NCBI GenBank assembly: GCA_037442105.1
Contig: JBBIQV010000007.1
Span: 1-64,000 of the forward strand
Reading direction: 5' to 3'
Origin: Nitrospiraceae bacterium
Lineage (GTDB): Bacteria > Nitrospirota > Nitrospiria > Nitrospirales > Nitrospiraceae
Length of the DNA: 64,000 nucleotides
Made by a program: the position numbers and the translations under genes. Below the pieces are notes generated by a model. The model saw only the letters and a program-made list of their open reading frames with translations, had not been told where the DNA came from and made no database searches. Numbering within the stretch: the stretch's first letter is position 1; every line of letters starts with the position of its first letter. Positions 1,567-13,996 of this stretch are shown piece by piece.

Positions 1567-3324
1567 TCATCCATAGGGCGGCAGCGTCGTCAGGCGCGTG
1601 TCCTCGACCGGTCCGCCAATCGTGAAATGGTAAAGGGATTGGAACGACAGCCCCTTGATTCCGACAATCTCATGGACCGGATCGTCGAAGAAACAGCCGA
1701 TACCGGTGCCCCTCACTCCTGCAGCCTCCGCTTCGAGATACAGGACCTGCCCCAGCAGGCCAGCTTCCCAGTAAAGACGTGGATACCACCAAGCTCCCTC
1801 TTGCCGCAAGCGTCCATCGAATTCGGCGATCATGCCGAGCGAAAAGGCACTGTCCCCGGCAATCTCCTGGTGGCAACTGACCTGAGCCGCCGCCTTCCTC
1901 GCATCACCTTCGAACAACCAATACAGTGGGAGGTCCTCCGGACAGTCCGGCGCTGGAGCCCAATTCAGTTCGTCATTCATGGATCGTTGCAACAGCGGCA
2001 ACTTTTTTAGATCGCGGACCAGGAAATAAATGCCCGGCGTCAAACCGTCTACCCGATGGACGAACAACATCAGATGAATGGCCGGCTCCCAGGGCAACAC
2101 ATCCCACGGCATCGGCCGGTCCAATTGAGGTAGATCCACACGGGCCATCACTTTCTGCATCATTCGAAAGAAGGTCGAGGAGGGGATCGACGTCTTTCCG
2201 TTGAACGCCACGGCGCTCCGACGTTGCCTGATTACTTGTCCAGCGGTTAGTTTTCGCCCTTCACCCCCATCCTCTCCCCGCTGGGGAGAGGGAAGGGAGA
2301 GGGCGAGCGCAACAGTAGGCTTGTCGGTCTGTGTCTTCCAAGAGGCTTTGGCCGCTTCGTCGATGATATCCCAATGGACCCCGTGCTCACGACTCAGCCG
2401 ATTCGCCTTCCCATGCCACGGCATACCAGCAAGATCTTTCACGACCAGTGGATCGAGAAACAACGGCAGCTCGCCCACTTCAGACCGATTGACGTTTGAC
2501 GAATGACGGATGACGCCGTCTCTGGGCCAGACGATAGCCAAACAGTCAGGATGTTCAGGCTCCGCCTCGCGAAAGTCGTCGGTACGATGAGTGCCCAACA
2601 GCTTCGCAGTCGTGTCTTGGGAAACGCCGTCCAGCAGCGTCATGGTCCAGCCGAGCGTCGCAGCCGCGATCCGTGCCGTTCCAATCGCATGGCCCACGTC
2701 ATGGTTGCAGTAGCGAAACGCACGTTCCCCGTACTTCCACGCTTCCCGCCAATGAATCGAGGTGAGGCCAAACAGAAATGCACCAGGAGGAAATGGAGCC
2801 AGCAGACAAGCGGTTTGTTCGGCAGGGAACTCAGCTCGCAATTCCAATCCATGCTCCTTGGGAGCGTAATGGTAGAGGCCTGAAGGGAGATCGAGGCCTT
2901 CGATCTTGGGCAGCACCAGATAACCTTCGGTCGGATGGAGATTGCCGGACGAGGGATTGCTGCGCAGCGCCCATTGCGTGTTTCCAACCCGTTTCCACGC
3001 CGACAGGGCCAGCCCAAATTCGAGAAACCGCGAGAACGTCGGTACCGTGACCGGCTGGACCGGCACTACTCCCCGCTGGTAGATCGCGTCATACGGCGGA
3101 GAGACCGGCCCGTCATCCGGTTTCAGAAGCGGCAGCGAAAAGAATGGAGCCCCGTCGAAACGGCGAAATGGATCAGGCTGGTTGGCCCAATCCATGTGTC
3201 CAAGAGAACGGGCATACCGGTAGAAATGATGCTTGGTCTGGAGATGATAATGGATCACCCGTTCAATCGGGTCCGCCGGTACAGGCTCGGCTGCCGCTGC
3301 AGGAAGATAACCGTCGGTGCTCAT
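1567..3324 (-). CDS. SagB/ThcOx-family nitroreductase-like dehydrogenase (two FMN-binding domains)
   Basis: YHxxTKH, LRSNPSSGNLHPTEGY, WREAWKYGERAFRYCNHDVGHA, IRQRRS, GIGCFFDD; start placed at MSTDG (3324). Confidence 0.88.
   Translation of the reverse strand: MSTDGYLPAAAAEPVPADPIERVIHYHLQTKHHFYRYARSLGHMDWANQPDPFRRFDGAPFFSLPLLKPDDGPVSPPYDAIYQRGVVPVQPVTVPTFSRFLEFGLALSAWKRVGNTQWALRSNPSSGNLHPTEGYLVLPKIEGLDLPSGLYHYAPKEHGLELRAEFPAEQTACLLAPFPPGAFLFGLTSIHWREAWKYGERAFRYCNHDVGHAIGTARIAAATLGWTMTLLDGVSQDTTAKLLGTHRTDDFREAEPEHPDCLAIVWPRDGVIRHSSNVNRSEVGELPLFLDPLVVKDLAGMPWHGKANRLSREHGVHWDIIDEAAKASWKTQTDKPTVALALSLPSPQRGEDGGEGRKLTAGQVIRQRRSAVAFNGKTSIPSSTFFRMMQKVMARVDLPQLDRPMPWDVLPWEPAIHLMLFVHRVDGLTPGIYFLVRDLKKLPLLQRSMNDELNWAPAPDCPEDLPLYWLFEGDARKAAAQVSCHQEIAGDSAFSLGMIAEFDGRLRQEGAWWYPRLYWEAGLLGQVLYLEAEAAGVRGTGIGCFFDDPVHEIVGIKGLSFQSLYHFTIGGPVEDTRLTTLPPYG
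2257..2303. repeat. REP-like palindromic element inserted in frame in the SagB-family gene
   Basis: Hairpin CCTCTCCCC-GCT-GGGGAGAGG (2271-2291) within CCCTTCACCCCCAT...GGAAGGGAGAGGG; encodes LPSPQRGEDGGEG. Confidence 0.7.
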
Positions 3325-3583
3325 TGTAATGATACCTGCCAGTCTAGCGGGCCGGGGGAAGGGAAGTAAATGCGGCGCTGAACCCTTCCGGCAAGAACTT
3401 AACCGCTCGCGGTAATTCTTGCCCATGTCCCCTGCCCCCCGCGATCGCCCACGCTCACCCGTTCCCACCCTGCCCCCGTTCCTGGACAGTTCGCAAGCAT
3501 CTGCTACCTTTGAAAAGTCGCGGTTCTGATCCGATGTTTCTCAACATTGCATATACGTGAACGCTTTATGGCACGGCTATCGC

Positions 3584-5331: not shown

Positions 5332-6414
5332 GTGCCGCTCATCTGGTGTTCCATTTCCGGCCACGGCTTCGGCCATGCAGCACAGGTGGTGCCGGTGCTG
5401 AACGAACTGGCCCAACGAGTTCCCAACCTCAAGGTTATCCTGCGGACCACGGTTCCGCCATCCTTCTTTGCAGACCGTCTTCAGATGAACTGGGAGTTGA
5501 GTGCCGTCCAGCAGGACATCGGGTGCGTCCAGGACGGGCCATTGGCGATCGATGTCCGTGGGACATGGTTCGCGCACCAACGGTTCCACGAACAGTGGGA
5601 GACGAAGGTGCGAGAAGAAATGCAGGCCATTCAGGCCAGCCGGCCGACCGTGGTATTGTCGAATATCGCTTATCTCGCTATCGAGGCGGGGAACACAGCG
5701 CAGATTCCGACCGTGGCGTTAAGCAACCTGTCATGGGACTGCATCCTGGAGCTGCTGCATGAGCCGGGGAATGCGGAGCAGCGCGCGATCATTCAACACA
5801 TTCGACGTTCCTATGCCTTTGCTGATCGGATGCTGCGCCTTGCTCCGGCACTACCGATGTCCGCATTCAAAAAGCTCACCGACATCGCCCCTATCGCTCA
5901 ACCTGTCTCCTCTGAACGGACCTTGGTCAGAGAGATGATTAGGGCCGGCTCACAAGAACGGCTGGTCTTGGTCGGATTCGGCGGGGTTCCTCTCCGTTCG
6001 TTACCGCTCGATCGTATGGAGTCCATGAAGGGGTACCGGTTTCTTGTCGATGGAACCGTCCCAGCCTCCTTCAACCGTGTCCAATCCATGCGCACCCTGC
6101 CGTTTCGCTTCGGCGCCCTGCTCGCTTCAGCCGACCTCATCATGACTAAGCCCGGCTATGCCACTCTTGTCGAAGCGGTCGCCCAGCAGAAACCGGTGGT
6201 CTACGTCCGCCGGCACAATTTTGCCGACGAGCAATCGTTGGTCGATTACCTTCACCGGTATGGGCGAGGAGCGGAGCTCAAGATGGATAATTTCGTTGCC
6301 GGCCGGTGGGAGGACGCGCTGGAGCAGGCGTGGGCTGAGCCGTTACCATCGCAAGATCCGCCGGCACTGTCCGGCGCGCAGGAGACCGCAGCGGTGCTGG
6401 CAGAATATTTCTAG
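5332..6414 (+). CDS. GT-B fold glycosyltransferase-like protein
   Basis: ISGHGFGHA N-terminal motif; LVGFGG, ADLIMTKPGYATLVEA and F.DE C-terminal motifs. Confidence 0.8.
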   Translation: MPLIWCSISGHGFGHAAQVVPVLNELAQRVPNLKVILRTTVPPSFFADRLQMNWELSAVQQDIGCVQDGPLAIDVRGTWFAHQRFHEQWETKVREEMQAIQASRPTVVLSNIAYLAIEAGNTAQIPTVALSNLSWDCILELLHEPGNAEQRAIIQHIRRSYAFADRMLRLAPALPMSAFKKLTDIAPIAQPVSSERTLVREMIRAGSQERLVLVGFGGVPLRSLPLDRMESMKGYRFLVDGTVPASFNRVQSMRTLPFRFGALLASADLIMTKPGYATLVEAVAQQKPVVYVRRHNFADEQSLVDYLHRYGRGAELKMDNFVAGRWEDALEQAWAEPLPSQDPPALSGAQETAAVLAEYF

Positions 6415-6446: not shown

Positions 6447-7253
6447 GTGCGTGTCGCCGGGTACTTGCTGCACCTGCTCGCCAAGTGGCTCGACGCGATC
6501 GGCAGTCTCTTCTTGCGGGTTGCCACGCTGTTGAACAACCTGTTGCCGGCATTGCTGTCTCCTGCCGATCTCATGAAGTTGATCAAGCAACACTATGAAA
6601 GGACTTACGCCCACGCTGCGCCACAGCTCACATCGGATGTTTACGACTGGACGCTGGAGAGCTGGGAGTTGGAAACGATCGAGCGGCATGGCATCGTCTC
6701 CGGCCGCATATTGGTACTAGGGGCGGGGGTCGGACGAGAGGCCATCGCCCTAGCGCAACGCGGGCTCACCGTGGTGGGGCTGGATGCGAACGGCATGGCC
6801 TTGCAAGTCGCAACGAAGACCGCCAGAACCTTGCAAATTCCTGCCCAGTTTGTGCAGGCGGACTTCCTTCGGTTGCCGTTCGCGTCCGTGCCTTTTCGGT
6901 ACGCCATCATGTCCGGCATCATGTACAGTGCCGTTCCAGGGCGGGCCCGGAGGCTGGCCTGGCTGGCCGACCTTGCGCGCGCTCTTGCACCAGGAGGGTT
7001 GGCTCTCCTCAACTTCCTTATCGACCAGCATCCGCCATCCAGAACGCAGCGGATAAGCCACGCGGCGAACCGGATTCTTGTTAGACTCCCAGGCGCAAAC
7101 CGTTCCTACCAAGCAGGCGATACCTGCGCGCAGAGCCATTTTCTGCATGCCTTCCGAGACGAATCCGAAATTCGGGAAGAATTGGAGCAAGCCAGCGTCC
7201 TGATTCAAGAGCTGAACTGGAGAAAAGGGTTCGCGGTCATCTCCTTTCCTTAA
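6447..7253 (+). CDS. Class I SAM-dependent methyltransferase
   Basis: Motif I ILVLGAGVGRE, then VVGLD, FVQADF and LAPGG. Confidence 0.85.
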   Translation: MRVAGYLLHLLAKWLDAIGSLFLRVATLLNNLLPALLSPADLMKLIKQHYERTYAHAAPQLTSDVYDWTLESWELETIERHGIVSGRILVLGAGVGREAIALAQRGLTVVGLDANGMALQVATKTARTLQIPAQFVQADFLRLPFASVPFRYAIMSGIMYSAVPGRARRLAWLADLARALAPGGLALLNFLIDQHPPSRTQRISHAANRILVRLPGANRSYQAGDTCAQSHFLHAFRDESEIREELEQASVLIQELNWRKGFAVISFP

Positions 7254-7289
7254 AGAAGGTCGTAGCAAACAGCACACGGCGCGCGGCGA

Positions 7290-7465
7290 ATAGCTCCATC
7301 AGCAAACAGCTAATAGCGAGCAGCCAGTAGCTTCAGACAGGCGGCCCGGAGCTTCACAGTTCTAGGCTATTCGCTATTAGCTATCAGCTATTTGTTCTGC
7401 TCGAGAGCTATACGAAGGCCGCTCTGGGCTTCCGGCTATCGGCTATCAGCTATTCGCTATCAGCT
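7290..7465. repeat. Heptamer tandem arrays (AGCNAAT / GCTATNN), inverted arms, upstream of the RiPP cluster
   Basis: AGCAAAC AGCTAAT AGCGAGC AGCCAGT ... GCTATTC GCTATTA GCTATCA GCTATTT ... GCTATCG GCTATCA GCTATTC GCTATCA. Confidence 0.8.
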
Positions 7466-7522
7466 TGGTCCTCTGAAATAGCTCTGGAAGGGCTTTCGGG
7501 GATTTGTTATCCTCACAGCGCC

Positions 7523-7816
7523 ATGGCGCCTGGCTCCATCTATAAGAAGAACCCCGACTTCGTACAGCGCGATGTCGCCGGGGAATGTATCCTGGTGCCG
7601 ATCCGCCGGCAACTCACCGACGTGAACAGCATCTATGTCTTGAACGAAACCGGTGCATCGCTGTGGAACCGCATTGACGGCCAACGTTCCACCAAGCAAA
7701 TCATGACGGACTTCTGTGAGGAGTTTGAAGTCAGCCTCGACCAATTGACGCAAGATTTCACCACACTGCTCAACGATCTTCTCTCGATCAACGCCATCGA
7801 GGAGGTCGTGCCGTGA
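7523..7816 (+). CDS. PqqD-family RiPP recognition element (RRE), stand-alone
   Basis: 97 aa: R.VAGE.ILVP, IYVLNETGASLWNRIDG, EF.V......D...LL..L typical of PqqD/RRE. Confidence 0.92.
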   Translation: MAPGSIYKKNPDFVQRDVAGECILVPIRRQLTDVNSIYVLNETGASLWNRIDGQRSTKQIMTDFCEEFEVSLDQLTQDFTTLLNDLLSINAIEEVVP

Positions 7817-7819
7817 CCG

Positions 7820-8731
7820 ATGGTTGAACGATATCAGCTACACCGCCTTCCCGACCGTTACCCCCTCTCCTGTCAGTGGGAGATAACCTGCCGTTGCAAC
7901 CTGCGCTGCGTGATGTGCTACACGGACTGCCTCAACCGCCCGGACAAGATTCGAGAGGAACTCGCCACACACGAAGTCCTCCGCATCATGGACGAACTGG
8001 GCAAGGCAGGTTGCCTCGAATTGTGCCTCACCGGAGGCGAACCGCTGGCACGACCGGATTTTTTCATCCTCTACGAGCAGGCGGTCAAGAGCGGGTTTCT
8101 GGTCACGCTCTTCACCAACGGAACACTGATCACGGAAACGGTGGCCGACCGGTTCACGCATTTCCCGCCCCATCGGATTGAAATCAGCCTTCATGGTGTG
8201 AACGAGCACACGTTTGAGACCGTGACCCAAACGCACGGCTCCTATCAGCGCTGCGCGGCTGCCATCAGGTTGCTCCGTGACCGCCGCCTGCCGCTCGTAC
8301 TGAAAACGACCGCCATGACTCTCAACCGCCGGGAAATCCTGGACATCAAGCGCTACGTTCAAGGTCTGGGTTCGGTCGGATACAAATTGGGTGAGGAGCT
8401 GCGCCCGGCACTCGACGGGACTGATGGCCCGCTCCGATTCGGTCTCCCGCCCGAGGACTTGAACGATCTCAATCGCGAGGACCCGCAGTTGTGGCAAGAG
8501 ACCTGCCGGAAGCAGAGCGCGCCGGCTCCGCCCTGCCGGAGCGGCATGCGCTCCTTCCATATCGACGCCTACGGATTCCTGCAGTTGTGTTCAGGGAATC
8601 GAAATCAGGGCTATGACCTGCGCAACGGGTCCTTCGAGGAAGGGTTCTACGAGTACCTGCCGGCCTTCGGCTGTCGATGGAAAGTGGACGCAACACCTGT
8701 CTTGCTTCACCCCAGCGTGACTCATGCCTGA
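7820..8731 (+). CDS. Radical SAM protein 1 (short, Twitch-like C-terminus)
   Basis: CNLRCVMC (CxxxCxxC), LTGGEPL, TNG, ISLHG; C-terminal CRSG..FHIDAYG..QLC with no CxxCxxxxxC. Confidence 0.92.
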   Translation: MVERYQLHRLPDRYPLSCQWEITCRCNLRCVMCYTDCLNRPDKIREELATHEVLRIMDELGKAGCLELCLTGGEPLARPDFFILYEQAVKSGFLVTLFTNGTLITETVADRFTHFPPHRIEISLHGVNEHTFETVTQTHGSYQRCAAAIRLLRDRRLPLVLKTTAMTLNRREILDIKRYVQGLGSVGYKLGEELRPALDGTDGPLRFGLPPEDLNDLNREDPQLWQETCRKQSAPAPPCRSGMRSFHIDAYGFLQLCSGNRNQGYDLRNGSFEEGFYEYLPAFGCRWKVDATPVLLHPSVTHA

Positions 8732-9857
8732 ACCACGCGTGCTTCCCACGATGGAGTACCGGGACTTCAGCCGACACGTCCATGACCGCGCAGCCGCTCG
8801 CCGGCATGTGATCAAGGCGCAGATGGAACTGACCTACCGCTGCAACCTTCATTGCCGCCATTGTTATACCGACCCGTACAACGGCAAAGCATGGCTCCCG
8901 CGCGAGCTGAGCCTGGCGGAGCTCATACGTCTCATAGATGAGATGGCTGATCTCGGCATCATGTGGCTCAACCTGACCGGCGGGGAAATTTTTCAACATC
9001 CACATTTCTGGACCATCTACGACCATGCCTACCGCCGAGGCTTTCTCTTGCAGCTCTATACCAACGGCACCCTCTTCACGAGAGGCATCGTCGAGCGGCT
9101 CCGGCAGACCCCACCGTTCACCATCGACATCTCGTGCCATTCCGTGAATGAAGAACGTTTCGACTGGTTCACGCAGGTTCCCGGCTCGTTCCGAGCCTTC
9201 TCACGAGGGCTGGAATTGTTGAAAGACAGTGGCCTGCCCTTCACGTTCAAAACCAAAGCCATGAATTGGAACAGGGACGAGATGCCGCAAATCAAGCAGT
9301 TCGTGGAATCGTTCGGACGGCGTTTCGGATTCACGACGTCGCTCTCGCCTCGGCTCAACGGCGATCTGTCTTCGCTCGGTTATCGTTTGGCTCCGGAAGC
9401 TGTTGTCGCTTTGCAACGAGAGGAACAACAGGCCGACGGGGAGGAGGAAAGCTGCGGTTTGTCCACTGACTTGCTGCCCCCTGCGACTGACCGGCTCTAT
9501 CGTTGCGGCTGTGGCACGGATACGATCCACATCAACGCCTGGGGCGAGCTCGGCACCTGTACCTTGCAATATGAGCGGCGTGTGTCGCTCCGCGAACATG
9601 CGCTCGGCGAAGCCATCGACAGCCTGTTTCGCAATATCAGGGCGATGCACTATCGGACCGAGTCTCCCTGCCGCACCTGCGACATCTATTCGTTCTGTGA
9701 GAAAACACCCTCGGATGCGCGCTGGGAGTGCGACGACGCCGAGGCCCCGATCCCTTATGATTGCAATGTCGCCCACGCGCGCGCGGAGTCCACGTCGCAT
9801 CAAACACTGATTCATCCGCTCCGCAGGACGTCCCATGGAAAGAGGACCCTTGCATGA
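8724..9857 (+). CDS. Radical SAM/SPASM protein 2
   Basis: CNLHCRHC, LTGGE, TNG; SPASM-like CGCG..INAWGELGTC ... CRTCDIYSFC ... YDC. Confidence 0.93.
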   Translation: MPEPRVLPTMEYRDFSRHVHDRAAARRHVIKAQMELTYRCNLHCRHCYTDPYNGKAWLPRELSLAELIRLIDEMADLGIMWLNLTGGEIFQHPHFWTIYDHAYRRGFLLQLYTNGTLFTRGIVERLRQTPPFTIDISCHSVNEERFDWFTQVPGSFRAFSRGLELLKDSGLPFTFKTKAMNWNRDEMPQIKQFVESFGRRFGFTTSLSPRLNGDLSSLGYRLAPEAVVALQREEQQADGEEESCGLSTDLLPPATDRLYRCGCGTDTIHINAWGELGTCTLQYERRVSLREHALGEAIDSLFRNIRAMHYRTESPCRTCDIYSFCEKTPSDARWECDDAEAPIPYDCNVAHARAESTSHQTLIHPLRRTSHGKRTLA

Positions 9858-10048
9858 CTGAGAAGAAACCATATTGCCCACCGCAACTCTTCCGCGTCGA
9901 ACTGAGCCAGGAACAGGCTATTTTGAGTGCCTGCAGCCTGATGTCCTCAAATCCAGCAGCCGGCGGGCTGGATCTGTATTGCCGGAGGGGCGGCTGTAAG
10001 CGGGCAACTTTCATGAGCATGTCCGACAGCGGGCTGCGGCCATCGTAA
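9854..10048 (+). CDS. Putative RiPP precursor peptide A1 (64 aa)
   Basis: MTEKKPYCPPQLFRVELSQEQAILSACSLMSSNPAAGGLDLYCRRGGCKRATFMSMSDSGLRPS; AGAGGA RBS; ATGA overlap with the rSAM2 stop; paralog follows. Confidence 0.88.
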   Translation: MTEKKPYCPPQLFRVELSQEQAILSACSLMSSNPAAGGLDLYCRRGGCKRATFMSMSDSGLRPS

Positions 10049-10065
10049 GCAGAAAAGTGGAAGCT

Positions 10066-10260
10066 ATGAGAATGAAGAAACCTTACAACGTGCCGCAACT
10101 GTTTCAAGTGGATTTAATGCATGAACAAGCTATTCTCAGTGCCTGCAGCTTGACCGCAGTGAACCCCCAGACAGGCGGTCTTGATCTCGCCTGCAGACCG
10201 CGCGGATGCAAGAAAGACAAAGATCCGAGAAAAGGGGACAGCGGCATGCGTCCCTCATAA
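10066..10260 (+). CDS. Putative RiPP precursor peptide A2 (64 aa)
   Basis: MRMKKPYNVPQLFQVDLMHEQAILSACSLTAVNPQTGGLDLACRPRGCKKDKDPRKGDSGMRPS; gapless alignment to A1 with 39/64 identities (start could be 10072). Confidence 0.88.
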   Translation: MRMKKPYNVPQLFQVDLMHEQAILSACSLTAVNPQTGGLDLACRPRGCKKDKDPRKGDSGMRPS

Positions 10261-10283: not shown

Positions 10284-11186
10284 ATGTCTATCGATCTCCA
10301 CATCGCCGGGTTCAGAATTCGGCTTGATGAACCTTCCGGCGTTGCCCGTCTCGGCTGGCCATTGCGCCCTTTCGACCGATTCAGGGATCAGAGTGACATG
10401 CCTCCCGATATCGTCGCGCGCGTGACGGTGACAAAGGCTCTTCCCACCCATCCGAAAGGCCTTTTGCGTTTCGACGCGTGCCACGGCCTCTGGCAACTGT
10501 ATGAGACCGATGCCGGTTTGCTACTGGAAACTCTGGACACCAAAACTCACCAACCCTACAGCCGCTCTCTCATTAACGAAGACTTTTCGCGGATAGATGT
10601 CTGGACGCTTGGGGAAGAGATGAGCACGGCGTACGGCTGGGTTCCGATGAAAATCTTCAACCCCGTGATCGAAGTGTGCCTCCTCACCAGACTCGCGCGT
10701 GAGGGAGGGCTCCTCCTTCACTCGGCAGGGGTTCTTTCACGCAGAGGAGGCCATATCTTCACCGGCGCCTCGGGGACCGGCAAATCGACTCTGTCCAGCT
10801 TCTTTGCCGAGCGTGGCGCATCGGTGCTCAGCGATGAGCGCATGATCATCCGAAAGAACGGAGCTTCTTTTGTTGCTCACGGTACCCCGTGGGTCGGGAG
10901 CGGCGCCTACGCGAAGAACGAGTCCGGACCTGTGACGGGGCTGTTTTGTATTCGTCAGGCACAACGGCATCACACCGAAGCCCTGTCACCCGGTGCCGCC
11001 CTGTCTTTTATTCTCCCGCAATGTTTTCTTCCGCATTGGGACCGAACCGCAATGGAAGCCACGCTGGCGTTCCTCGGCGATCTTGTCCTGCATGTTCCCT
11101 GTAAGAGTCTGGCATTTGCCAAACACCCCGACGTTATCGATTTCGTCCACGACCAGCTCGCGTCAACAGCACTGGTGACATCATGA
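10284..11186 (+). CDS. HPr-kinase-like P-loop protein (putative peptide kinase)
   Basis: LLHSAGV, FTGASGTGKSTL (Walker A), VLSDE and GTPW motifs; start 10284 follows GGTGAG. Confidence 0.8.
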   Translation: MSIDLHIAGFRIRLDEPSGVARLGWPLRPFDRFRDQSDMPPDIVARVTVTKALPTHPKGLLRFDACHGLWQLYETDAGLLLETLDTKTHQPYSRSLINEDFSRIDVWTLGEEMSTAYGWVPMKIFNPVIEVCLLTRLAREGGLLLHSAGVLSRRGGHIFTGASGTGKSTLSSFFAERGASVLSDERMIIRKNGASFVAHGTPWVGSGAYAKNESGPVTGLFCIRQAQRHHTEALSPGAALSFILPQCFLPHWDRTAMEATLAFLGDLVLHVPCKSLAFAKHPDVIDFVHDQLASTALVTS

Positions 11187-12241
11187 ACAAGCTGGATGCC
11201 GGCGAGTTTCTGGAATCGCTTTCGACGAAAGCCGCTGCCTGTCGCCATCCAGAAAGCGTGACTTTTGAGCTGACGTACGGCTGCAACCTCCGGTGCCTCC
11301 ACTGCTACAACCCCACTCATCGCGTGTTGCCTCATGAACTGACGACTGTCGAGATCTACTCGATTCTGGACCAACTCGCAGACTTCGGCGTACTCAATGT
11401 CACATTTTCGGGCGGTGAACCGTCGATCCGTCCCGATATCGTTCAGATCCTGCGCCACGCACGCTCTCGTGGTCTCATGATCCAACTTCTGACCAACGCA
11501 ACGCGCATCACCCCTTCCTTCGCCGAACTCTTGGGCGAGGTCGGCATTGCACAGATCAACGTATCCATCTACGGCGCCTCCGAGACCACATATGAACACA
11601 TGACCGGTATCCCGGGCTCCTACACGGCATTCGCCCAGGGCCTCCGATGCCTTGCCGTTCACGGCCTCCCCATCACTGTCCGCATGCCGGTCACGACCGT
11701 GAACCAGGGAGACCTGGTTGCTTGCCGCGCACTGGTCGAAAACCACGGCTTCAAATTTCAATATTGTCTGGACGTGACGCCCAAAACGGATGGCGATTGC
11801 ACTCCGCTGCAGTACCGATTGAGTCCGCAGGAGAAGCACCGCATCGATCACACTCTGCTGCCGCATCTTGCGGATGTCTCGAACGAGGATTCGTGCTCGT
11901 CTCGCTCGACGTTCATCTCCTGCGCCTGTGGGAAGAACCGCTTCGCCATCACCCCCTATGGCGAGATGAATCTCTGCGTCGCCTTTCCGATTCCCAAGTA
12001 CGACCTCCGCGCAGGCACGGTCAGGGCCGGTTGGGAGCTGTTGAAGCGAACGGTAGACCACGCCGCTCCGAACGAACACGACCAGTGCCCCGCCTGCGAG
12101 GGTTACTCCTATTGCCGCCAGGGCCGGAGCGATGCGTGGCTCGAAACCGGCGATATGAGCCGCTGCTTGCCTCACTTCAAGGAATGGGCCTTCTTGGAGA
12201 AACAGTCCCATGCCCTCCTTCACCCTCGACGATCTCGTTGA
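11183..12241 (+). CDS. Radical SAM/SPASM protein 3
   Basis: CNLRCLHC, FSGGEP, TNA, VSIYG; CACG..AITPYGEMNLC ... CPACEGYSYC; ATGA-coupled to the kinase. Confidence 0.93.
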   Translation: MNKLDAGEFLESLSTKAAACRHPESVTFELTYGCNLRCLHCYNPTHRVLPHELTTVEIYSILDQLADFGVLNVTFSGGEPSIRPDIVQILRHARSRGLMIQLLTNATRITPSFAELLGEVGIAQINVSIYGASETTYEHMTGIPGSYTAFAQGLRCLAVHGLPITVRMPVTTVNQGDLVACRALVENHGFKFQYCLDVTPKTDGDCTPLQYRLSPQEKHRIDHTLLPHLADVSNEDSCSSRSTFISCACGKNRFAITPYGEMNLCVAFPIPKYDLRAGTVRAGWELLKRTVDHAAPNEHDQCPACEGYSYCRQGRSDAWLETGDMSRCLPHFKEWAFLEKQSHALLHPRRSR

Positions 12242-13184
12242 ATCCTATGTGCGCGTCAGTTCGCTCAACCACCGGGCGCTGGACCGCTTCGTGGAGATCG
12301 GCGCGCAGCTCCGCCGGCACGGGATCGACTTCCTGGTTCTGAAAGGCGCGGACCTGCTGTCCCGTCTCTATGGGACCAGAGGGACACGACCGATGACGGA
12401 TGTCGATTTGCTGGTTCACGAGCCGGACCTTCCGCTCATCGACCATCTACTCACCGAATGCGGCTATGCGCAAGAGATCGACGGCAATCCGGCCTACCGC
12501 TCACCGGACGGGAGCCTTTTGCTGGATATCACCTGTGACCTTTGGTACCTGGACCAGGCAGGCCTGGATGCGGTCTGGCGACACGCCATTCAGCGAACGA
12601 TCCACGAGCTTCCCATCCGCTGCATGGGCACGGACGACCTCGTGCTGTATCTGACTGCTTATGCCGTCATCCATCGCGGCGCGTGCTCCACGCCATTCGC
12701 CGGAGACCTTGCCCTGGTGACGAAACGGGAGTCGGTGAACTGGGAGTCTGTCTGCAAACAAGCCGCTCGATGGAACCTGAAAGTTCCTGTGTATCACGGG
12801 CTCTCATACCTGCAACCCCTGCAAACCGGGCAGCCGCAACTTGCCATCCCGCCCAAAGCGCTGGCCGATCTTGCCCCCGTGACCTTCGGCGAACGATGGC
12901 TGCTCCGTTTTCTGCGCAAGGCGGTGACCGACAAGCCGATCACCAACCTCGGACATCTGCTTCTGCTCCTGACGCGGCCGGCCGGTACCAGGTGGCCGTG
13001 GTTGAAACGAACGTTTTTCCCATCGCCTGCGTTTCTTGGGTACCGATACGGCTCCGTCAGCCAACGTCATCCCATCCGAACCAGGCTGATGCGCATCCTG
13101 TCGCTTGGCTTCCAAGCCTGTCTGCTGGCAGGACGGCTCGGCGTCATGTTGTGCACATCGACAGCGCAAAGGCTTCCTCGATGA
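12210..13184 (+). CDS. Nucleotidyltransferase family protein (NTP_transf_5-like)
   Basis: LVLKGADL..RLY....RPMTDVDLLV signature; later H and DL motifs. Confidence 0.88.
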   Translation: MPSFTLDDLVESYVRVSSLNHRALDRFVEIGAQLRRHGIDFLVLKGADLLSRLYGTRGTRPMTDVDLLVHEPDLPLIDHLLTECGYAQEIDGNPAYRSPDGSLLLDITCDLWYLDQAGLDAVWRHAIQRTIHELPIRCMGTDDLVLYLTAYAVIHRGACSTPFAGDLALVTKRESVNWESVCKQAARWNLKVPVYHGLSYLQPLQTGQPQLAIPPKALADLAPVTFGERWLLRFLRKAVTDKPITNLGHLLLLLTRPAGTRWPWLKRTFFPSPAFLGYRYGSVSQRHPIRTRLMRILSLGFQACLLAGRLGVMLCTSTAQRLPR

Positions 13185-13216
13185 TTCACTACGCCACGAT
13201 GATTCACTACGCCACG
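13181..13216 (+). repeat. Perfect 18-bp tandem duplication at the peptidase start
   Basis: ATGATTCACTACGCCACG x2, encoding MIHYAT-MIHYAT. Confidence 0.9.
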
Positions 13217-13996
13217 GGCCTCGTTCGCAGCCAGAAGTGGGGGACTGCCGATCGGCTCACCGGCCACGACCTGCTCCCCATTCTCCGGCACACCAGGCTT
13301 CTGGTGTCTTCATGGAGCATGTTTCCGACGATCCGCAAGGGTGACTACATTGAACTCGACCACGCATGCGAGGTGAACGTCGGCGACATCGTGGTCTACC
13401 GCCAATGCGGCGCGCTCGTCTGCCATCGCGTGAGATCGCTCACCCAGGACGGGCTCGTCATCACAGGCAGCGAGGACATGGCCACAGGCACGGACGCGGT
13501 TTTTCGGCGAGACATCATCGGTCGCGTGACCTGGATCATTCGAGGCCGCCGACGATTCGCGCCGGCGCATGGTATGCCGCCTACTCTGATGGCCTGCTTG
13601 CGCCGTCGCTTCGACCAATATCGCGCGTCCTATTCGAACAAGGCGCGATCGATCGCCGCCGCGATTCTGGCAGGTCTCACCCGGCGTCGAATTCCTCATC
13701 GCCTGCTGTCCAGGTTGTTCCTGAGTTGTCTCCGCTTCCGCATCATGGCAAAGATGCCGATCGAGTCGATCCCTGCCTACGACTTAGCCGACAATCCGAT
13801 CTGGTCCCACGGAACACGCCGTACCTCTATCCGGGTCCGTAAGATCGCAACAAGAGAGCGCCTCATCGTCTGTGCATACCTCGGGTCTCACCTCGTGGGC
13901 AGTGTGGACTTACGTTCAGGGGAGCAACGATTGCACCCGCTGATCGGCGGGCTCGGCCTAGAACTCTACTTTGCGGATCTGACGCATCTTCAATAG
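13181..13996 (+). CDS. S24/S26-family (signal-peptidase-like) peptidase, candidate leader peptidase
   Basis: SWSMFPTIRKGD (catalytic Ser box), VGDIVVY, VCHRV, DIIGRV; ATGA overlap with the upstream stop. Confidence 0.78.
   Translation: MIHYATMIHYATGLVRSQKWGTADRLTGHDLLPILRHTRLLVSSWSMFPTIRKGDYIELDHACEVNVGDIVVYRQCGALVCHRVRSLTQDGLVITGSEDMATGTDAVFRRDIIGRVTWIIRGRRRFAPAHGMPPTLMACLRRRFDQYRASYSNKARSIAAAILAGLTRRRIPHRLLSRLFLSCLRFRIMAKMPIESIPAYDLADNPIWSHGTRRTSIRVRKIATRERLIVCAYLGSHLVGSVDLRSGEQRLHPLIGGLGLELYFADLTHLQ

Follow-up and report, generated by a model that had tools for sequence, protein, structure and literature searches.

The window analyzed here (64,000 nucleotides of contig JBBIQV010000007.1 from Nitrospiraceae bacterium, GCA_037442105.1) contains a run of tightly packed genes on the + strand that encode, in order, a methyltransferase, an RRE, two radical SAM enzymes (rSAM1 and rSAM2), two precursor peptides (A1 and A2), an HprK-like kinase, a third radical SAM enzyme (rSAM3), an NTP_transf_5 nucleotidyltransferase and an S24/S26 peptidase. 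From the RRE gene to the S26 gene the intergenic gaps span -32 to +23 nt. The RRE (7523..7816; PF05402, E 4e-14) is a stand-alone protein with a PqqD fold. rSAM1 (7820..8731; PF04055) retains an intact CX3CX2C motif and, by its Cys motifs, is Twitch-like, the second auxiliary-cluster motif being absent; rSAM2 (8724..9857; PF04055) is a radical SAM/SPASM enzyme with CxxCx5C present and the fourth Cys lacking. Downstream of the precursor genes, the HprK-like peptide kinase (10284..11186, a start inferred from homologs) was identified from an invariant motif and a profile match to HprK structures (E 3e-4), and is followed by the radical SAM/SPASM enzyme rSAM3 (11183..12241; PF04055) and the nucleotidyltransferase (12210..13184; PF14907, E 5e-27). 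The last gene encodes an archaeal-type, signal-peptidase-like S24/S26 protease (13199..13996, with the start at 13181 or 13199; PF00717 above cut-off), the C-terminal half of which has no assignment. A scan of 25 window ORFs found no exporter in the cassette, and an ABC transporter adjoins only the homologous locus L223 (20 neighbor ORFs scanned).

The upstream border of the cassette was set by co-occurrence. Across 201 Nitrospiraceae genomes, a sample in which kin are not independent, many genomes are incomplete and one is flagged as unpublished (G075), 53 have the precursor, 51 the kinase (49 of these along with the precursor) and 53 a class I SAM methyltransferase (50 of them among the precursor-bearing genomes); the methyltransferase (6447..7253, start uncertain; + strand; PF13649, E 5e-13) is therefore a cassette member. 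The glycosyltransferase encoded at 5332-6414 was rejected as a member because it is found in 186 of the 201 genomes (a count that includes G006 and G052, likewise flagged as unpublished, besides G075).

Three other features of the window were noted. The intergenic region between the methyltransferase and RRE genes (7254-7522) contains a dispersed repeat rich in GCTATCAGCT, with 23 further blastn matches in the genome; this 10-mer occurs 56 times, versus ∼5 expected under uniform composition. A nitroreductase of the SagB family, scoring above the cut-off of TIGR03605, is encoded 4 kb upstream (1567-3468, - strand) and is syntenic in many relatives. Between 32001 and 36000 the AT skew is strongly positive (0.15-0.24) relative to the remaining window.

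Two tandem precursor genes

A1 (9854-10048) and A2 (10066-10260), both on the + strand and 64 aa long, are tandem paralogs forming a DNA repeat with a spacing of 212 nt. A1 carries a YxxPxL leader (Y7, P10, L12), an EQAIL segment, Cys27, Cys43, Cys48, Asp58 and a C-terminal Ser64. According to the original prediction, the two peptides align without gaps at 39/64 identities, share the three Cys residues and differ completely over residues 50-57; translation and alignment bear this out on every point, and 100,000 shuffles of A2 gave at most 14 identities, versus 39 for the real pair. A fourth Cys in A1, Cys8, is present in 1 of the 120 homologs listed. A coding signal is also seen, with codon positions 1, 2 and 3 differing at 0.27, 0.19 and 0.56 among 139 distinct leader DNAs. 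A1 and A2 are real small genes.

The longer starts that the prediction had flagged in the ORF track (9761 and 10057) are indeed there. For A1 the start at 9854 is supported, because it overlaps the rSAM2 stop by 4 nt and homologs begin MTEKKPY; that of A2 is uncertain, with a 62-aa form from 10072 standing in the database (P0001). The concern that automated annotation would miss such genes does not apply in general, since 184 homologs stand in the protein collection, the named ones as "hypothetical protein". The genome from which the window comes (G000, 86.7% complete) holds two precursor copies only, and one each of the RRE, kinase, nucleotidyltransferase and S26 genes.

Searches of Pfam, NCBIfam and the PDB with the precursor matched no family, the nearest match being the TfuA lasso leader (E 0.22). 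The ESM Atlas returned unnamed clusters with a best score of 0.87, which we treat as a lead only, and an AlphaFold2 model of the precursor (mean pLDDT 59.6, pTM 0.19) was too weak for use. A scan for promoters and terminators gave hits at chance level.

Conservation in the precursor family

Of 187 candidates from a word-seeded search, 184 proteins were retained. Among the 120 homologs listed, the leader positions Y7 (118), P10 (120) and L12 (114) are conserved together with Cys27 (120), Ser28 (120), Cys43 (119), Cys48 (117), Asp58 (116) and Ser64 (116), and a D-S-G-x-R-x-S tail motif is conserved in the close family. Three acceptors for cross-links to Cys had been proposed: Asn33 (58/120) and Asp40 (50/120) prove unconserved, and Asp58 is conserved but limited to the three-enzyme cassettes described below.

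A full profile search yielded 246 representatives at E <= 0.001; among the 149 new ones listed, 129 are Ser-terminal, and exactly three Cys are present in 119 of the 143 that are no longer than 95 aa. Pooling gave 406 sequences; filtering by length and motif removed 60, and the other 346 are represented at 70% identity by 171 sequences. Because the profiles used to collect these sets derive from the precursor family itself, conservation figures are somewhat inflated. Among the 171 representatives the distance from Tyr/Trp to Cys1 is 20 in every case (the filter allowed 19-21), three Cys are present in 153, and a C-terminal Ser is present in 159, versus a core Ser frequency of 0.12. The Cys1-Cys2 spacing is 15-16 in 129/153, the Cys2-Cys3 spacing runs from 3 to 18 and Cys3-Asp from 7 to 14; Lys or Arg directly follows Cys3 in 135/153, and aromatic residues make up 3.5% of the core. 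The near-invariant frame of the family consists of the YxxP leader, EQA[IV]LxxC, two further Cys and the C-terminal Ser. Residues 50-57, predicted to be a hypervariable block, are variable (2.49 bits) but are not a single block, since all inter-Cys spacers vary (2.49 bits at 39-42, 1.87 at 30-36 and 1.84 at 45-47). The original prediction overlooked both the near-invariant C-terminal Ser and the module of kinase, nucleotidyltransferase and S26 peptidase, features that tie the locus to LPPs and phosphorylated lasso peptides.

A related subfamily (L161, L163, L164 and L167) has WxxP leaders, an EQAVLSCCD segment with adjacent Cys residues and up to 4 copies in 2 kb; enzymes were not seen within these short loci.

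Distribution of the cassette

Named relatives belong to the Nitrospiraceae/Nitrospirota and include one Rokubacteria MAG, and the precursor family extends to other phyla beyond Nitrospirota. Across 14 named-relative loci the precursor lies amid cassette genes in 12 and is a stand-alone copy in 2, and gene order is conserved from locus to locus. Homologs near radical SAM and PqqD genes, on whose absence the prediction would have fallen, were clearly found; a lasso/LPP-type YxxP leader beside RRE and radical SAM genes supports its reading of A1 and A2 as RiPP precursors. The cassette is carried by about one in four genomes sampled from a major nitrifier family and appears to encode a widespread peptide-modification pathway in a nitrifier-type bacterium.

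Precursor genes that stand alone, apart from any cassette and often behind a promoter-like stretch of their own, occur in genome G454 (L088, L093, L225-L229) and at L076, L079, L080, L082, L091, L094, L099, L102, L119 and L140. The 7 precursor matches in G454 lie on 7 contigs; three carry a frameshift, and two are within near-identical 3.2-kb stretches. A mobile element carrying the stand-alone copies was considered and rejected, no flank being common across genomes (15 copies).

One-enzyme and three-enzyme cassettes

Ten loci of 11.5-18 kb (L213-L217, L219-L223) encode an RRE, one radical SAM enzyme, a precursor, a kinase and an S26 peptidase, and L068 is similar; some of these loci stop near a contig end, and L215, L219, L220, L221 and L223 have several kb on either side. 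At L218 the precursor, kinase and S26 genes are present and the radical SAM gene is absent. The 11 single-enzyme loci gave peptides in 10 cases (the atypical L221 peptide was missed) and 10 representatives, and the 59 three-enzyme loci gave peptides in 50 cases and 36 representatives. All 10 single-enzyme representatives have 3 Cys, Lys after Cys1 and a short tail; a tail Asp is found in 0/10, and the last residue is Ser in nine and Thr in one. The three-enzyme representatives have Asp or Asn 5-6 residues before the end in 36/36 (Asp in 33), Ser as the last residue in 36/36 and Ser after Cys1 in 31/36. Their Cys counts are 3 (31 representatives), 5 (4) and 7 (1), with one extra Cys in the Cys2-Cys3 loop and one ahead of the Asp. 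The longer, Asp-bearing tail travels with the extra enzymes, a pattern that amounts to only one or two evolutionary events and not 46 independent ones.

This comparison bears directly on the original proposal of one cross-linked Cys for every radical SAM enzyme, three in all, with Asn33, Asp40 or Asp58 as the acceptor. Three near-invariant Cys residues, three stable paralogs and the conservation of Asp58 in three-enzyme cassettes all speak for such a scheme. The 3-Cys frame, however, also occurs with a single enzyme (10/10 representatives), and three genomes (G115, G177 and G161) combine three enzymes with 5-Cys precursors only, so three Cys for three enzymes is not a rule; with two of its acceptors unconserved, we regard this proposal as quite unlikely, though the paralogs may have divided their labor later.

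Two further arrangements were observed. The three-enzyme cassettes L224, L230, L231 and L232 (also L095, L096, L120, L135 and L150) have a TPR protein with an RRE on either side, along with several methyltransferases and a fusion of S26 to GNAT. In the single-enzyme cassette L220, a protein of 1480 aa that carries a C25 (gingipain-type) peptidase domain is encoded between the kinase and S26 genes (L220:10271-14713).

Radical SAM enzymes

A quickly built tree (84 rows, one long outgroup, unreliable root) groups the radical SAM paralogs by cassette position and not by genome. Position 3 is set apart by a branch with support 91, two changes each are required for positions 1 and 2, and the single-type enzymes form their own group (97); given the quick method and the outgroup, any order of evolutionary events read from this tree would be tentative. 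The CxxCx5CxxC motif is retained in 9/9 single-type enzymes and in all paralogs scored from one three-enzyme subgroup (L107, L111, L114, L127 and L128). The second auxiliary motif is missing from enzyme 1 (15/15), and the fourth Cys from enzymes 2 and 3, in the Nitrospira and two-RRE subgroups. At E <= 1e-30, 2512 proteins match the single-enzyme form.

A profile search of the PDB gave the thioether-forming SkfB as the best match (E 9e-30) and PqqE as the second. None of the radical SAM proteins reached the cut-off of a known maturase among the NCBIfam models (SkfB 55-63 of 300 bits, AlbA 70 of 850, PapB 42-62 of 340, StsB 67-102 of 625), and the heme-biosynthesis models NirJ2 and AhbD, as well as mycofactocin models, outscored those for sactipeptides and ranthipeptides; thioether chemistry is therefore not shown by homology.

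Could the precursor be sacrificial, with a small cofactor or signal of the PQQ or mycofactocin kind cut from its invariant tail? The PqqD-type RRE, the presence of MftC and PqqE models among the top matches and the conserved D-S-G-x-R-x-S tail would suit such a role. We consider it very unlikely, as the tail Asp is found in 0/10 of the single-enzyme cassettes, just one protease is encoded in the cassette, and the presence of several divergent copies in one genome sits better with a diversified product.

The RRE, kinase and peptidase

The best PDB sequence match of the RRE is a lasso RRE (9x90, E 0.026), with the LPP RRE (9x8z) at E 0.81. A predicted complex of the RRE, the S26 domain and A1(1-40) scored 0.76 versus 0.58 for a control, and was not counted as evidence. 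In the kinase, the residues H146-G161-G164-G166-K167-S168-D184 are invariant in 18/18 sequences and have the spacing of the BsfK motif (PMC10368454), with Glu in 17/18 where BsfK has its second Asp; a single-sequence PDB search with the kinase gave no significant match. Ser40 and His76 of the S26 peptidase are invariant in 24/24; the catalytic Asp of LppS was not securely mapped, the window protein having Glu92 in the conserved Asp column. The window S26 scores 39.8 bits against TIGR02228, below the cut-off of 51.85, and its homolog at L221 lies above it. Fusions of S26 with the nucleotidyltransferase or with a GNAT domain occur in some relatives.

Cleavage had been predicted near Ala26|Cys27. 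Four candidate sites come into question, and at this one P1 varies (A 73, T 27, V 22, Q 19 of 171). The best-fitting site appears to be I23-L24-S25|A26, a plausible if tentative choice at which P3 is Ile or Val in 169/171 and P1 is small in 166/171, matching the -3/-1 preference of SPase I given in PMC2259416, and which would make Ser28 "Ser3". As S25|A26 fits only 5/10 of the single-enzyme precursors, cleavage after Cys27, Ala26 or Ala22 is kept as an alternative, each with a low probability.

Proposed pathway and product

A1 and A2 are probably precursors of an uncharacterized RiPP pathway that joins an LPP/paeninodin-type module (RRE, HprK kinase, NTP transferase and SpI-like leader peptidase) to radical SAM enzymes. 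Most likely, the RRE would guide Cys thioether cross-linking, Ser phosphorylation with the C-terminal Ser favored, and leader removal by the S26 protease. By analogy with the LPP and lasso systems, the RRE would bind the Y7-x-x-P10-x-L12 leader and present the precursor both to the kinase and to the S26 protease, and the latter would remove the leader with the help of the RRE, as LppS cleavage is reported to be RRE-dependent (PMC13381572). The kinase would (poly)phosphorylate a Ser, most likely Ser64, otherwise, in three-enzyme cassettes, Ser28. There are reported precedents for both: PsmK phosphorylates a C-terminal Ser (PMC6993621), and Ser3 is phosphorylated by LppK (PMC13381572) and BsfK (PMC10368454). 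Three-enzyme (36/36) and single-enzyme (10/10) precursors alike retain Ser/Thr at the C-terminus and differ in the residue after Cys1, which favors the C-terminal Ser; a target common to both types can only be the C-terminal Ser/Thr. The NTP transferase may decorate the phosphate afterwards; PsmN is reported to be required for the hexose on that phosphate (PMC6993621), and deleting lppN is reported to have caused no visible change in LPP work (PMC13381572).

The step that we put forward most cautiously is the installation of Cys thioether cross-links by the radical SAM enzymes. Thioether formation is the likeliest reaction because the Cys residues are conserved and aromatic residues are rare, and this rarity argues against aryl cross-links; the lack of a fixed Cys-acceptor spacing, with Cys2-Cys3 and Cys3-Asp as variable as described above, counts against the scheme. 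The core Cys could instead form disulfides or bind metal, with Cys27 serving as a recognition residue for the protease (P1) or an enzyme and the radical SAM enzymes acting elsewhere, by epimerization or side-chain chemistry at Asp58, Lys49 or a Ser. The extra Cys are mostly paired (counts of 3, 5 and 7, added in the Cys2-Cys3 loop and before the Asp), as disulfides would be, which keeps a disulfide model alive; Cys27, at its fixed distance from the Tyr, would be the only invariantly small P1 in both cassette types, and the frequent Lys/Arg after Cys3 points the same way. Against this, 4-Cys members exist (3/171), Cys is absent from the P1 residues given in PMC2259416, and SkfB is the best structural relative by sequence; we judge the disulfide or metal arrangement unlikely.

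Under the preferred thioether scheme, the basic 3-Cys frame would need no more than one radical SAM enzyme, the additional paralogs would have come with the longer tail, whose conserved Asp/Asn is their likeliest additional target, and the variable spacers and extra gene copies would diversify the product. We also entertain, with considerable doubt, a new RiPP class in which three specialized radical SAM paralogs act in sequence and with different chemistries on one 3-Cys scaffold, at least one of them on the tail Asp, to give a product that also bears a phospho- or phosphoglycosyl-serine and a methyl group and is released by a signal-peptidase-like enzyme. If this were true, the series of single full-SPASM, three intact and three diverged enzymes would offer a stepwise test of how radical chemistry is gained. 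The precursors give a so far unstudied radical SAM enzyme group (the 2512 proteins above) its likely substrates, and the comparison of one- and three-enzyme cassettes yields testable predictions for Ser64, Ser28, Asp58 and the cleavage site.

Comparison with known systems

The SynChlorMet cassette (ScmC/D/E/F; TIGR04248-04251) combines a PqqD-like protein with several radical SAM/SPASM genes. The kinase weakly matches ScmC, but identity with this system was rejected, the scores being 23 of 125 bits for ScmC, 20.6 of 100 for ScmD, 83.8 of 400 for ScmE and 78.7 of 400 for ScmF, with distant relatives also below the cut-offs; the name SynChlorMet was not found in the literature searched. Sactipeptide and ranthipeptide systems (SkfB, AlbA, CteB, PapB) share a Cys-containing precursor, an RRE and radical SAM enzymes with SPASM/Twitch domains, and SkfB is the best PDB match. 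The present cassette differs: all its scores fall well short of the cut-offs for those families, its RRE is a separate protein, the spacing from Cys to acceptor is not fixed, and a kinase, nucleotidyltransferase and S26 module is present.

The closest known systems are the LPP clusters (2026) and the phosphorylated lasso clusters. The latter (paeninodin, pseudomycoidin with PsmK/PsmN, PMC6993621, and Bsf, PMC10368454) are reported to share the YxxPxL leader, the RRE, the nucleotidyltransferase, a kinase with the same motif spacing and a conserved C-terminal Ser. No lasso macrolactam cyclase or B2 protease domain was found among the cassette ORFs, which encode radical SAM enzymes and an S26 protease in their place.

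Linear polyphosphorylated peptides are made by LppA/K/B/S/D/N (Popov et al. 2026, PMC13381572). In common with LPP, the cassette has a discrete RRE (PF05402), an HprK-like kinase, an NTP transferase (PF14907), a candidate SpI-like peptidase with conserved Ser and His, a YxxP leader, one to three precursor genes and no macrolactam cyclase. It differs in its three radical SAM enzymes and methyltransferase, LPP being without radical SAM, in three conserved Cys and a C-terminal Ser, and in lacking the MsbA-like exporter of the LPP cluster. The leaders, YxxPxLFRVELxxEQAILxxC here versus YxxPxVLxHQxIxFETxxS in LPP, have YxxP alone in common, and cleavage at S25|A26 would place the Tyr at -19 versus -16 in LPP. 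LPP is from Bacillota, whereas the present cassette is from Nitrospirota and other phyla. The main text of PMC13381572 makes no mention of radical SAM/rSAM, SPASM or Nitrospir-; its SpI table gives Acidobacteriota SpI+RRE loci outside the LPP cluster, without an assigned precursor, whose RREs resemble window-type RREs by eye. LPP loci are reported to be associated with capsule/polysaccharide genes (PMC13381572), which is echoed by cassettes L213, L214, L221 and L230, adjoining genes for Wza/SLBB, Wzc-like, GT4, O-antigen ligase, GT2 and DegT proteins. A description of the cassette was not found in the literature searched, a scope outside which lie most subscription journals and bioRxiv supplements, and within that literature it would represent an undescribed RiPP variant that unites radical SAM enzymes, of chemistry predicted by analogy, with the LPP module. 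Gene content thus shows that the maturation module known since 2026 from LPP is also paired with radical SAM enzymes.
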